Shown here: positions 21,206 to 25,787 of the stretch, in pieces | Layout: every line of letters starts with the position of its first letter | How positions within the stretch are numbered: position 1 is the stretch's first letter | DNA from: an uncultured Chlamydiae bacterium | GTDB taxonomy: Bacteria > Chlamydiota > Chlamydiia > Chlamydiales > JAJFMA01 | DNA: 64,000 nucleotides | Assembly: GCA_963713615.1 (NCBI GenBank) | Contig: CAVQMM010000001.1 | Coordinates: forward strand, 576,001 to 640,000 | Direction: 5' to 3' | The notes under the pieces: generated by a model | The model's input: only the letters and a program-made list of their open reading frames with translations | Told to the model about the DNA's origin: nothing | The model's database searches: none | Translations under genes and position numbers: made by a program

Positions 21206-22603
21206 GTGGTGAGACTTTCAGAGCGTTTTCAGTTGGCGTTGGGGTCCCATCTTGGGACGGTATTTATCGGCTTAATGGTCCTGCTAGGCCTATTGGCCCT
21301 TATCTATTGGTACTTAGTGATCCGTCAAAAACGCCGCGATTTGCTCGCCTTTCTTAATCGGTCTTATTATCAGAAGGCTACAGAACTGGCTAAAGGGTTC
21401 ACTTTTGTAGGGACCCATAAAGCTGATTTTTTTGGCAGACAGACAGTTGTTAAATGGACTAGTGGAAGCTTTGGTCTCTGCTCCATTCCACCGCCGAATT
21501 ATGTGGATCAAGGTGTCAAAGATCGCCTTCGTTGTTTTCATCATGCTAAAGAGCATCTGTCATTGCCTCTTTTTGTCCCGGTATTGTGGTCTTGCATCGA
21601 CCCTATACTGGCTGTTATCGAAGGTGGCCTGGTCGATTCTCGTGGGCGGTTGTTGCCAAGCCTCCGTCACTACCTTTTAGACGGGAAGCTGGGGGTAACC
21701 TCTAGAGAACAGATCTTACTCGAGCTTGCTCGAGCCCTCGCACGTCTACATGAGCAACGCGCGGAGTTTGGCGGATACTTATATCATGGCTTTCTGCTGC
21801 TGCGGTCATTGTTTTTGGAGCTGGATGCTGATTATCGTGTCGCGCGTTTGCTTGTGGCTAACACAGGCATGGCTTTTGCAATGGGACCTCAGCGTTTTGC
21901 TCAGCTACTTGTTCAGCTTAAGGAAGGACGACTTCCCATAGAAAAATATAGTGCTAATGAGATGCTAGAGCAACTCGCTATGTTGGCGCCTGAGCAACGG
22001 AATCCCCACCGGGTCTCTGAGGTGGGACCTTCTAGCGACTTTTTCTCTTATGGAGCTTTAGCAGTAGCCCTTTTAGGCCAGCAGCGCTTTGCATCAGTCG
22101 AAAAGATTGATTGGGACAAGGTGCCGGAGCGGTGGCGTCCCTTTCTAAAGGCTTGTCTCTGTACTGAACCTGGGCAACGGCCACAGGACTTTCACGAATT
22201 AGAGGATTGGTTGGACGATCCTGAGCTGGCCCTCACCTATACTCATAGTGCCGCGGAACCCGCCATGCCTGGGCTAGAAGAGAAGCATAGTGCCAATCTT
22301 TTAACGGATATGTTAAAGCGTGCTCATGTTGTAAGTCCCGCAAGGCCCAATAGCGATGAACTAGAACGCTATCTTGCTGAGGGGCTAAAGGCAATCAAGG
22401 GCGAGAAGTGGCATGTAGCGCGCACAAGTTTTCAAAAGGTGATTAAGATCGATGGTTGCCATGCAGTGGCTCATGTCAATATGGCTATTGCTTGCTACCA
22501 ACTGGGAAACCGTCGTGAAGCTGAAGTCCACTATGATGCCGCTAAGAAGGCAGACCCGCTGGTAGCTAAGGGCTTTCGACAGCACCTAGCCTTCCGTCTG
22601 TAA
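21206..22603 (+). CDS. Membrane-anchored Ser/Thr pseudokinase with C-terminal TPR
   Basis: TM helix; kinase C-lobe motifs LARALARLH, MLAPEQ, SDFFSYG, CL..EPGQRP; catalytic loop reads YHGFLLLRS, DFG reads NTG; TPR AHVNMAIACYQLG. Confidence 0.8.
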   Translation: MVRLSERFQLALGSHLGTVFIGLMVLLGLLALIYWYLVIRQKRRDLLAFLNRSYYQKATELAKGFTFVGTHKADFFGRQTVVKWTSGSFGLCSIPPPNYVDQGVKDRLRCFHHAKEHLSLPLFVPVLWSCIDPILAVIEGGLVDSRGRLLPSLRHYLLDGKLGVTSREQILLELARALARLHEQRAEFGGYLYHGFLLLRSLFLELDADYRVARLLVANTGMAFAMGPQRFAQLLVQLKEGRLPIEKYSANEMLEQLAMLAPEQRNPHRVSEVGPSSDFFSYGALAVALLGQQRFASVEKIDWDKVPERWRPFLKACLCTEPGQRPQDFHELEDWLDDPELALTYTHSAAEPAMPGLEEKHSANLLTDMLKRAHVVSPARPNSDELERYLAEGLKAIKGEKWHVARTSFQKVIKIDGCHAVAHVNMAIACYQLGNRREAEVHYDAAKKADPLVAKGFRQHLAFRL

Positions 22604-22886
22604 AGGACTAAAAGGACCAAAGAGACATAAAGGATTTGTAAGCATTTGCCTTCTGAGTCCTTTAGAGGTAATTGCAGAAGTCCGATTTTCCGAAGTCAAT
22701 TTCCTGAAAATCGGATGCCGGTGAAGAGAGAGCCATTCCCTTCCCAGGCCCGAAGGGTCGATATTGCAACAGGCCATGGCATCGCCACATAGGCCTCAAC
22801 CTAAGCCTAACAATCGTATCTCGGCGCGCAGCGCTTTGGAGTGCGGTCGCTTGCGACGTAAGCGTCAATTGAGGCCATCTGGCGAT

Positions 22887-24431
22887 TTATTCGGCAGTGG
22901 GGGCTGATGAGGTGGATGAGGCCTTTGCTTGTCGCCTGGCGGCAGCCCAAGCGTCGGGCAGAAGCTCGTGAAGTTTTTGAGAATTATGGGCTGGCAGGCG
23001 CCTCATCACATCCTCTAGGTATTCGTGGGGGTTGACTCCTATCGCGCGGCAGGTCTGTACCAGGCTTAGCAGTACGGCGGAAGCTTCCCCACCCTCCTCG
23101 CTTCCAATAAACATCCAGTTCTTGCGGCCAATAGCTAGAGGGCGTATCGCTCGCTCCGCTACATTGTTGTCGAGACGCGCAAATGCATGTTGGGTGTAGT
23201 TTTTCAGATGGGGAATTAAGCTGCAATAATAGCCTAGAGCCTCCCTTAGATTCGATTTGGGAAGAGCCTTGCCATTAACCAGCCGGTCCTTGATGCGTGC
23301 AGTCAGCTCATCTATTATTGGAGCTTCTTTCTCTTGTCTTATCCGCAGACGTTCCTCTGGAGAACGTTCCCAAGCAACTCTCTCTAACATAAATAGATAT
23401 TTTATCTTGCGCAGTACCCAGCTAACAAATTTTTTATCGCCACCTACAGCGTCGAAAAACTTGCGCCGAATGTGACTCCAGCATGGACACCAAGTGAATT
23501 GCTTCTTATTAGCCAGTGCTTCATAGGCTCCATATTTATCCGAATGGACAACACCTTTATATCCAGCTAGTATTTCCACAGCATGCTTGTGGCAGCGGTC
23601 CGTGCGAAAATGATAGACTCGATAAGGCGGATTTTTTTCCTGCCCTCCAACGATCACCCACATAAAAGCCTGGTGCACCTTTCCCTTACCAGGGACAAGC
23701 ATGTCCACAGGAGATTCGTCCACAAAAACATTGTTGCTGCTGAGCACGCGAGCAATCATTTCTTCATATAGCGCCTTTAAGGCATATCCACAGCGCATTA
23801 CCCACTTGCAAAGTATTTGTCGGCTGATGAGAATGCCCTCGCGAGCTAAGATTTCCGATTGACGAAATAAAGGAAGGTGATCGGCGAATTTTTTCACGAT
23901 CACACTGGCTAAAAGACTTTCATCGGCTTGACAGCGAGGAAAAATGCTATCTGGTAAATCTGCGATAAAAACGCCCTCTTCACTATGTGCTCTACATGCA
24001 TACTTGGGACGTACTAGCTCCTTGACGTAGTAGCTACCTGGCGTATGCGCTATTTTGTGAGTGACTTCTTCGCCAATTTTGACGAGGGCTTCACCCGTTG
24101 TAGGGCAAACTTTTTGATCCTCTGGCAAATCTAAAATACAGCGTTGAACGGGAATATTGTCTGGAAGCGTAATTTTATCTTTGCCATTGCGCCCCTGCTT
24201 AACCCGTCGATGAGCAGGCACATTTATTGTCTCTTTTTGCTCTTCGGAACCAAGATTTTCGAAACCTTCCAGGTAGAGTTGTTGACCGCCATCGTCGACT
24301 ACTTTTTCCGAACGTTTCCCAAAAATCTGACGCCTAAACCATTCAAGCTGCTCCTTGAGAAAGCTATTCTCATTTCGCAGGGAATAAATTTCCGATTGAA
24401 GCTGTTCTAGTGATAGTGTTGAGGTTTCCAT
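22887..24431 (-). CDS. tnpC: IS66 DDE transposase TnpC
   Basis: IFGKRSEK, KFADHLPLFRQ, VDESPV, CWSHIRRKF and DNNVAERAIR..AIGRKNW motifs. Confidence 0.97.
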   Translation of the reverse strand: METSTLSLEQLQSEIYSLRNENSFLKEQLEWFRRQIFGKRSEKVVDDGGQQLYLEGFENLGSEEQKETINVPAHRRVKQGRNGKDKITLPDNIPVQRCILDLPEDQKVCPTTGEALVKIGEEVTHKIAHTPGSYYVKELVRPKYACRAHSEEGVFIADLPDSIFPRCQADESLLASVIVKKFADHLPLFRQSEILAREGILISRQILCKWVMRCGYALKALYEEMIARVLSSNNVFVDESPVDMLVPGKGKVHQAFMWVIVGGQEKNPPYRVYHFRTDRCHKHAVEILAGYKGVVHSDKYGAYEALANKKQFTWCPCWSHIRRKFFDAVGGDKKFVSWVLRKIKYLFMLERVAWERSPEERLRIRQEKEAPIIDELTARIKDRLVNGKALPKSNLREALGYYCSLIPHLKNYTQHAFARLDNNVAERAIRPLAIGRKNWMFIGSEEGGEASAVLLSLVQTCRAIGVNPHEYLEDVMRRLPAHNSQKLHELLPDAWAAARRQAKASSTSSAPTAE

Positions 24432-24513
24432 ATGCTCTAAATCATATCACAGACCCCCTCTATTATCAAGTATTTTATCTAATAAAATGCACATTGTTTT
24501 TAGGATTTTAGGC

Positions 24514-25095
24514 TCAATGACTACTCTCCAACAACATTAGAAATTCTCGACGATCGATAGCGGAATCTGGAATGCTTCCATTGCGAAAACTTCCTTTTTC
24601 AAGTCGCTTGTACCAGACGGCATGACCATTACCATCCCAGTAAAAGACCTTCACTAGATTTCTACGACGATTTAAAAAAACGAAGTAGGCCCCGCAGGTA
24701 AATTCGCCCGAGAACGAACTGTCAACAAGATTGCTCAAGCACTCAAATCCCTTTCGCATATCGATCGGCTCTTGATAGAGAAAGACACCCTTGTTTTTCT
24801 GATATGACGACCTCAGAGTTTTGCTCGCAGACTTTAGGGTTAGATAGACGCTCTTCTGATCAAGCGAAAGCTTGAGCTCGGGCAGGGTAATGTCTATCCA
24901 ACCCGTCGAGGAAATGTGGTCGGGCGGGCTAACTTTAAAGCGTTGGTACCAGTACAAGAGCTGCTGGTAGCTTATATTGTTCTCTAGGCACCACCTGCGG
25001 CCACTCTGACCGCTCGCCATCCATTGGTCTATGCGTCGAGCCCACTCAGAACGCTTCCTTTTGAAATCCATTAGTATCTCCATGGTTAGGGTCAT
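24514..25095 (-). CDS. IS66 accessory protein, TnpA-TnpB fusion
   Basis: N-half W..SGQSGRRWC..NIS..LLYW (TnpA HTH); C-half PIDMRKGF..FVFLNRRR..KVFYWDGNG..WYKRLEKGSF (TnpB). Confidence 0.88.
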   Translation of the reverse strand: MTLTMEILMDFKRKRSEWARRIDQWMASGQSGRRWCLENNISYQQLLYWYQRFKVSPPDHISSTGWIDITLPELKLSLDQKSVYLTLKSASKTLRSSYQKNKGVFLYQEPIDMRKGFECLSNLVDSSFSGEFTCGAYFVFLNRRRNLVKVFYWDGNGHAVWYKRLEKGSFRNGSIPDSAIDRREFLMLLESSH

Positions 25096-25787
25096 GGAGA
25101 AAACTTAGAACCTCGCGGAATTACGAAAAAGGTGGCTTCAATTGACGCTTACCTTGCGACCGCTTTGGGTTCCTTGCGACGGTCGTGTGCAACGGCATTA
25201 CTATAATTCCCTAAGGGTAAAATAGTTAGTACATGCAGCCTTCGACGAATCCATACAATGCCGTTTAGCATTGCCGTCCCAAGGAACGAAAAGCGGTCGC
25301 AAGCGACCGCACTCCAAAGCGCTGCGCGCCGAGATACGATTGTGAAGTCCTAAGTCATTGAGATATAAGCTCAAAAGACCTGTTAGGTTGAGGCCTATGT
25401 GGCATCGCCATGGTATATGCCAGGAAGGGATTTCGCAGCCTGTAGGGCTGCCATAAGGCGCTTGTATAAATAGCGTGTGAATACTGACGTCTTATGGCAG
25501 TCCTTCAGACTGCGAACCACGTTTTGGCATATACCATGGCGATGCCATGGCCTGTTGCAATATCGACCCTTCGGGCCTGGAAAGGGATAAAAGCCTGTCT
25601 CTCCAGACTAGATAGTGCCATGCCATTTGAGCTTTCCAGAATCGCCTTCTCGCAAAAAAAGGTAACCTTTTTTCCTAAGAATCGATCCTTAAGGGCTCAA
25701 ATAATTTTGCAATTACCTCTTTATGTCCTTTTCGTCGCTTTGGTCCTTTCAGTCCATCCAAGAGCGACCGCACTCTAATAGTTGTCC

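Follow-up and report, generated by a model that had tools for sequence, protein, structure and literature searches.

Nested mobile elements in REP-like hairpins of a likely chlamydial genome

Known REP-targeting elements and the nested stack

Insertion sequences (IS) that use repetitive extragenic palindromic (REP) sequences as targets have been described before, including ISPsy8, ISPa11, ISPpu9/10, ISRm19, ISRm22, IS1397 and IS621 (PMC1525189, PMC3184786). The text of PMC1525189 accessible to us assigns such elements to IS3, IS110, IS4, IS256 and IS5 and does not mention IS66. [quoted passage not shown] This stack is real and systematic. Its elements share with the known REP-targeting IS that all or nearly all copies sit at one position of the REP (PMC1525189, PMC3184786), and the imperfect target-site duplications (TSD) of some copies have there been ascribed to recombination; one of the known elements, ISRm22, belongs to the IS4 family. 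Unlike the systems presented in PMC1525189, the targeting elements here belong to IS66 and IS1634, and MITEs are among them and carry the next REP, over three levels.

As in the REPIN/RAYT systems, in which RAYT stands for REP-associated tyrosine transposase and REPIN for the paired repeat, inverted doublets form long hairpins that are present in hundreds of copies, and a single-copy Y1 HUH gene is flanked by the repeat (PMC3337134, PMC3733652, PMC6006769). In contrast to these systems, the gene accompanying one of our repeats (REP2) scores as IS200-like, the doublets lie largely inside DDE-type MITEs, and the GGAC hairpins accompany four-helix-bundle genes and no Y1 enzyme. MITE-B resembles the IS231 and ISH8 subgroups of IS4 and the MIC231 cassettes in its CAT ends, its 10–12-bp TSD and the existence of non-autonomous derivatives, and its autonomous relatives encode a single 450-aa transposase as IS4 elements do; unlike the MIC231 cassettes it carries a REP doublet instead of genes, and its partner was not found in the genome (PMC2266710). 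Ordinary IS can also be nested (the 'Russian dolls' of PMC3852290), but there the nesting is treated as incidental, whereas here the same order is seen at 12 loci because of target choice.

MITE-A, through its autonomous relatives, shares with the IS1182/IS5 (DUF772) elements and their MITEs a transposase type with DUF772 and DDE domains and a 4-bp TSD. It differs from them in that its partner stays below both NCBIfam cut-offs and that its GGAC register was seen only in chlamydial genomes. While REP-targeted transposition is already known, IS66 as a REP-targeting element and the chain were not found described: the literature searched, which did not cover ISfinder, contained no REP-specific IS66, no three-level chain and no chlamydial case, and absence from print is not established by this.

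Layers of the stack and their relatives in the window

An earlier note, made from the sequence of the window, had proposed these layers and their TSDs, and inspection of the sequence together with self-BLAST located every one of them. The left part of the GGAC 9-mer hairpin (22604–22664), which comprises the left arm, the loop and the start of the right arm, ends with the first TSD copy, TTTA (22661–22664), placed directly after GTCC (22657–22660). MITE-A (22665–25719, plus strand), of the DUF772 DDE (IS1182/IS5-like) family, measures 3055 bp as found and 432 bp net, has 17-bp terminal inverted repeats, and is followed by the second TTTA (25720–25723), with which the right part of the hairpin, consisting of GTCC units, begins (25720–25757). 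Inside MITE-A lies REP2, a REP-like doublet (22737–25587), the left arm of which (22737–22787 and 25400–25422) is split by MITE-B, with the right arm (25525–25587) empty. MITE-B (22788–25399, plus strand; 2612 bp as found, 309 bp net) is of the IS4-family type, with CAT ends and the 11-bp TSD TGGCATCGCCA (22777–22787 and 25400–25410), and holds another REP doublet, REP3 (22809–25343), of which again the left arm (22809–22857 and 25153–25168) is split, this time by IS66, and the right arm (25290–25343) is empty. The IS66 element itself (22858–25152, minus strand, 2295 bp) has GTAA ends and the 8-bp TSD CTTGCGAC (22850–22857 and 25153–25160); it contains an open frame for the 514-aa transposase TnpC (22887–24431, minus strand) and a fused TnpA-TnpB frame of 193 aa (24514–25095, minus strand; TnpA at residues 14–74, TnpB at 104–190).

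When each layer is removed together with one TSD copy, 752, 309 and 432 bp and a GGAC hairpin of 98 bp remain, and the exact subtraction claimed earlier for MITE-A (432) and MITE-B (309) is thereby recovered. The subtracted MITE-B is identical to the copy at 51239 in 307/309 positions, the subtracted MITE-A aligns with the copy at 60275 with 395 identities, 36 mismatches and 2 gaps, and the host hairpin aligns with 13964–14062 with 81 identities, 9 mismatches and 17 gaps.

The window does contain family members that correspond to the intermediates named in the earlier note, but they occupy other sites and do not record the history of the stack site. They are a GGAC hairpin without a MITE (13960–14065), a MITE-A with MITE-B (51239–51547) and no IS66 (51114–51867, plus strand; TSDs TAAA and GGGCATCGCCC), and two MITE-A copies alone (60275–60706, plus strand, in another GGAC subfamily, TSD ATAT; 62664–63095, plus strand, TSD TTTT). 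In addition, an A-type end occurs at 55103–55370 (minus strand) together with a REP3 doublet that no MITE-B surrounds. An empty site was found in a relative: in the orthologous gap of the congener G003 (L176) lies a bare GGAC hairpin with 43-nt arms that are 88% complementary. The same gap holds a REP2-like remnant in G001 and a REP3-like hairpin in G002, so that the site is a sink for such repeats.

The stack begins directly 3' of the stop codon of a gene for a 465-aa protein with a weak TPR match (21206–22603, plus strand), and the convergent gene on its right encodes an enoyl-ACP reductase (25788–26720, minus strand). Inspection of the sequence also revealed a remnant half REP3 unit (25758–25778, minus strand) adjoining the GGAC hairpin, possibly a further outer layer; tails like it occur at 14058–14075 and other sites, which suggests that the layers form a cycle. 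Further outer inverted repeats enclose two of the MITE-A sites in the window (60199–60227/60849–60880 and 62549–62563/63114–63125), the first type of which is found on the flanks of a GxxExxY gene (C1:1855174) as well. A gene for a methyl-accepting chemotaxis protein (MCP; HAMP and MCP domains) is located at 26824–29010, in what is likely a chlamydial genome. An Rfam search of the window gave no match.

Insertion positions across the genome

The genome contains 18 full copies of this IS66, which are 99.65–100% identical. Seventeen of them duplicate the same 8-bp window of REP3 (positions 8–15 of 18), in either orientation, and the 8-bp TSD is perfect in 17/18. The earlier note had placed the insertion in the hairpin loop; it is indeed inside the hairpin, but the duplicated window of the 18-bp hairpin covers the loop and five bases of the 3' stem. 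Thirteen copies lie in main-type MITE-B inside MITE-A and make up the 12 stacks, one of which has both arms occupied, and four lie in other REP3 units; REP3 has 385 units genome-wide, of which 175 are located inside the 93 MITE-B spans. In the single copy outside REP3 (C1:3364419), TSD positions 4–7 read G-T-A-A, like the IS66 end, where REP3 has G-C-A-A.

A second element uses the same hairpin. An IS1634-like element encoding a 594-aa protein, assigned on the basis of its size, its TSD and a PF01609 match, is located in REP3 in 6/6 copies, at a position neighbouring the IS66 site, and five of them show a 6-bp TSD. Since it has its own ends and this 6-bp TSD, its gene, which is found within some MITE-B copies, was rejected as the partner of MITE-B. 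Other elements of the same genome served as controls: an ISAs1-like element adjoins REP3 at 0/8 loci and a second IS1634-like element at 1/9 (both counted by eye), and of a second IS66 (2859 bp) none of the four resolved copies lies in REP3 (likewise by eye). For related IS66 elements in three other genomes, 30/36 listed ends had varied TSDs and no common flank (by eye). The second IS66 is broken by a 520-aa IS1634-like element, and inverted copies of it form a cluster (C1:2405455–2410035, 2884536–2889659).

TnpC matches PF03050 with an E value of 1.5e-83 and scores 356 against the cut-off of 180 of the IS66 model NF033517. GTAA terminal inverted repeats and an 8-bp TSD define the IS66 family, and the element has both. 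The definition also includes tnpA and tnpB as separate accessory genes, and here it departs from the family: as seen in the window copy and at L183, TnpA and TnpB are encoded by a single 193-aa frame, while the aligned relatives and the second IS66 of the genome have separate TnpA and TnpB frames. Among the best 120 of 589 matches, one other full-length fused homologue was found (P0002, 203 aa, 64% identity), on another contig.

On insertion, MITE-B duplicates a single palindrome of 11 bp within REP2. Of 172 main-type ends, 166 adjoin REP2, although only 282 of the 1309 GGC-N3-GCC sites of the genome lie in REP2, and a variant end adjoins REP3 in 24/27 cases. An 11-bp TSD is present in 73 of the 95 paired copies and no TSD in 17, which together with the CAT ends agrees with an IS4-family MITE (10–12-bp TSD). 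Measured against a type 1 REP association, which in the strict sense of PMC1525189 means 100%, the values are thus 17/18 for IS66, 6/6 for the IS1634-like element and 166/172 ends for MITE-B. Within MITE-A, MITE-B occupies arm 1 or arm 2 in either orientation (18, 17, 9 and 7 cases among 106 main-type MITE-A ends). The 17 combined elements of 752 bp carry 17 different MITE-A haplotypes and only four of MITE-B, and 50 of 60 MITE-B copies differ from the majority by at most one change, compared with 2 to 92 changes in nine bare MITE-A copies; MITE-B has therefore spread recently into older copies of MITE-A. In other genomes, elements with B-type ends of 1398–1525 bp encode IS4 transposases of about 450 aa and often lie in palindromes; all five that were scanned exceed the cut-off of NF033592 (IS4_1), and the YREK pattern is present in three of six autonomous relatives. 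A related IS4-type element is present in the congener G003.

MITE-A has 300 ends in the genome, and GGAC lies four bases outside the end in 103 of them and GTCC five bases outside in 106, with 0.8 expected per offset, so that 209/300 ends fit the register of the GGAC units. With terminal inverted repeats, TSD, many copies and no coding capacity it is a MITE in the usual sense. The 110 paired copies include 40 with a 4-bp TSD, four with a 5-bp TSD and 19 with longer repeats (13 of 43 bp, in tandem arrays). Such arrays, of up to nine copies, are located at C1:476526–478848, 1173286–1175476, 2273505–2280484 and 2600817–2603020, with a period of 473 bp that includes a 43-bp GGAC hairpin spacer (455 bp in the last array). 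Genome-wide, then, MITE-A, MITE-B and IS66 copies are placed non-randomly relative to palindromes, far beyond chance, and the earlier proposal that three different DDE families sit in palindromes is borne out by IS1182/IS5-like DUF772, IS4 and IS66 elements at fixed positions.

Outside this genome, the register of the A end with GGAC was exact in 11 of 15 fetched ends of G002 (29 in total), 7 of 15 of G250 (50 in total), 6/10 in chlamydia-titled records and 0/60 in other phyla, a comparison in which 80 of 112 loci were used, 16 were left out as chance matches in coding sequence, and the related genomes are kin and not independent. Only the ends of MITE-A are widespread across phyla; of 30 relatives, 28 gave no match to its body and the other two only short ones of REP2 type. 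For the most part, MITEs with the A end across phyla (L061–L172) surround palindromic repeats of varied kinds and show 4-bp TSDs that are rich in AT. In G002 solo A ends lead straight into GTCC arrays (L391, L395, L401, L409, L411), as if the MITE body had been deleted at the GTCC common to end and array. An A-end scan of genome contigs gave MITEs only, and the autonomous partner was identified through a DUF772 search of 32 genomes: an element of 1510 bp in another genome (L349) has the A end, shows a TSD of 4 bp and codes for a DUF772 DDE protein of 366 aa. GAG ends are found in this element and in the 1575-bp copies of G100. The protein scores below the cut-offs for IS1182 (68.8 vs 270) and IS5_4 (63.3 vs 140), and the family was assigned only as DUF772 DDE, IS1182/IS5-like; relatives occur in 12 of 301 genomes of the phylum.

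Source of the hairpins, rival explanations and meaning

The GGAC hairpin, REP2 and REP3 all occur abundantly across the genome. GGAC-N5-GGAC occurs 540 times, with about 56 expected, and REP3, with its 385 units and the doublet fold seen in MITE-B, provides abundant hairpin-forming doublets. Six Y1 genes are present in the genome. One of them, at C1:3256780 (L006), has the HYH motif, passes the RAYT model NF047646 (REP_Tyr_transpos; 83.7 vs 80) and has an inverted REP3 array of three units on either side; the earlier note had suggested a search for a RAYT/TnpA-REP gene. Another, at C1:3243412 (L003), has REP2 arrays downstream only, an HVH motif and an IS200-like score (57.3 vs 55). Inverted arrays of the GGAC 9-mer flank two four-helix-bundle genes (L012, L013; TIGR02436/TIGR04258). 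The earlier idea that the elements use each other's palindromes finds no support in this form, since the hairpins are not the DDE elements' own and match the repeats that flank RAYT, Y1 and four-helix-bundle genes, and its safe landing pads and modular cassettes are hypothetical; what had been overlooked is that they are REP-like repeats, associated with two RAYT/Y1 and two four-helix-bundle genes and carried as MITE cargo. A third Y1 gene at C1:3873041 (L002) has its own flanking hairpin, and the same hairpin lies inside an A shell at C1:3816692.

The nested order recurs at 12 loci, but it is not a strict hierarchy. The reversed order, a B end outside a GGAC hairpin and this outside MITE-A, is present at C1:1739247 and 3729739. 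In A-type shells the third hairpin (REP3) can lie directly, and in G003 a B-type MITE surrounds a GGAC hairpin. Other repeats, too, are carried in shells of the A type and the B type. The A shells at C1:351022, 1272842 and 3788858 contain another small repeated element, which measures about 150 bp and has short inverted ends, and the MITE-A copy at C1:1137410–1138825 contains an extra stretch of about 900 bp that resembles a decayed group II intron.

The stack is most probably a chain of fixed-position insertions, likely sequential, for which three DDE transposases with specific targets were responsible; the hairpin for the next element is brought along by each MITE. Each transposase likely selects a hairpin of its own, a habit already known from other elements. 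MITE-A and MITE-B each hold a hairpin doublet and thus each offer two target sites. Y1/RAYT enzymes would have spread the REP doublets and at some time introduced them into the shells of MITE-A and MITE-B. MITE-A would owe its spread to a DUF772 transposase that is now lost or missing from the assembly, and an IS4 transposase would next have spread MITE-B into MITE-A copies that had already diverged. IS66 and an IS1634 element may have come last and hit REP3 arms, almost half of which were supplied by MITE-B. Insertion would always have been between genes, so that the elements could expand at little cost to the host.

Several results weigh against this explanation. Neither partner transposase was found in this 99.1%-complete genome, in the case of MITE-B despite nearly identical copies; autonomous relatives with the same ends, sought by the earlier note, were identified elsewhere. 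Searches of the own genome with PF13751 and PF05598 gave no match, PF13546 gave two unrelated ones, and none of 31 PF01609 matches had A or B ends as its own; open reading frames between relaxed A or B ends, tblastn and profiles from relatives likewise yielded no such transposase. No empty A or B shell was seen that would prove insertion of a REP doublet by RAYT. One of the 18 IS66 copies lies outside REP3, and 47 of 110 paired MITE-A copies have no TSD, which together with the 43-bp repeats in tandem arrays means that recombination or slippage also shapes MITE-A. Two stacks (C1:867073 and 2131917) are of one configuration, and some joint movement or conversion may lie behind it. Finally, among the contigs of eight public runs, in which the unique flanks reach about twofold coverage, none bridges the whole stack and none shows an empty-site joint; one of these runs may come from the source sample.

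There is almost an even chance that what the transposases read is only a linear consensus of moderate length, of which the hairpins happen to be the commonest match, with no recognition of hairpin structure, RAYT or host factor. This would alter the mechanism of target choice and not the chain. The 12-mer that surrounds the IS66 site has 360 matches in the genome, 340 of them in REP3, so that recognition of sequence and of structure are indistinguishable here; likewise a symmetric consensus of 8 bases has 876 strand matches, of which REP3 contains 692, and a 15-bp palindrome has 181 matches, of which REP2 contains 176, and IS4-type ends in metagenomes adjoin CC in 69 of 122 flanks. However, related IS66 elements show only varied TSDs, the IS66 outside REP3 misfits the strict consensus, and the same A end shows no GGAC preference in other phyla (0/60), which makes the specificity lineage-specific. 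Less probable by far is that one or a few nested composites arose once and were then multiplied whole, whether through the outer element, in tandem amplification or by gene conversion between near-identical repeats. Although the tandem MITE-A arrays with their 473-bp period, the MITE-A copies without TSD (47/110) and the stack configuration that occurs twice would fit, this route is largely refuted as the main one: all four arm and orientation states of MITE-B are common, the 17 MITE-A haplotypes all differ with only four for MITE-B, and IS66 occurs in either arm, in either orientation and at four REP3 sites outside main-type MITE-B. The varied arms and orientations of IS66 in the stacks and the haplotypes indicate independent insertions; movement of whole stacks is not the main route.

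In a gene-dense genome, selection is expected to leave insertions in dispensable repeats. Random insertion followed by such selection would agree with the intergenic position of all hairpins seen; we consider it very improbable and reject it, since selection cannot fix an exact base and other multi-copy IS of the same genome persist at unrelated sites. An assembly artefact of repeats, for which it speaks that no contig of the eight runs bridges the whole stack, is hardly credible and was likewise rejected: perfect site-specific TSDs are present at every level, 12 stacks of differing layout lie on one contig of 3.9 Mb, and junctions of these types were seen again in contigs from other runs (IS66-REP3 junctions in X2, X4, X3, X5, X6 and X9, MITE-B-REP2 junctions in several).

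Beyond the chain of fixed-position insertions, a self-feeding target economy is possible, if rather doubtful. IS66 would be a site-specific variant that recognises the RAYT hairpin, possibly via its fused TnpA-TnpB, and the REP doublets that belong to domesticated HUH and four-helix-bundle systems would be multiplied by DDE MITEs (MITE-B spans hold 175 of the 385 REP3 units), so that every expansion makes landing sites for the next family, in cycles and not in a fixed hierarchy.

The IS66 described here is a natural and well-replicated case of target choice in a family whose close relatives, as seen here, insert at varied sites. With the non-specific second IS66 of the same genome as a matched control, the determinant of IS66 targeting is directly testable, and such targeting could yield a tool for site-specific insertion. 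Furthermore, the genome shows how REP-like repeats can increase in number as hitch-hikers inside MITEs whose families are unrelated, and how a bacterium that depends on a host can come to a genome of 4 Mb that includes hundreds of mobile copies, kept between its genes.

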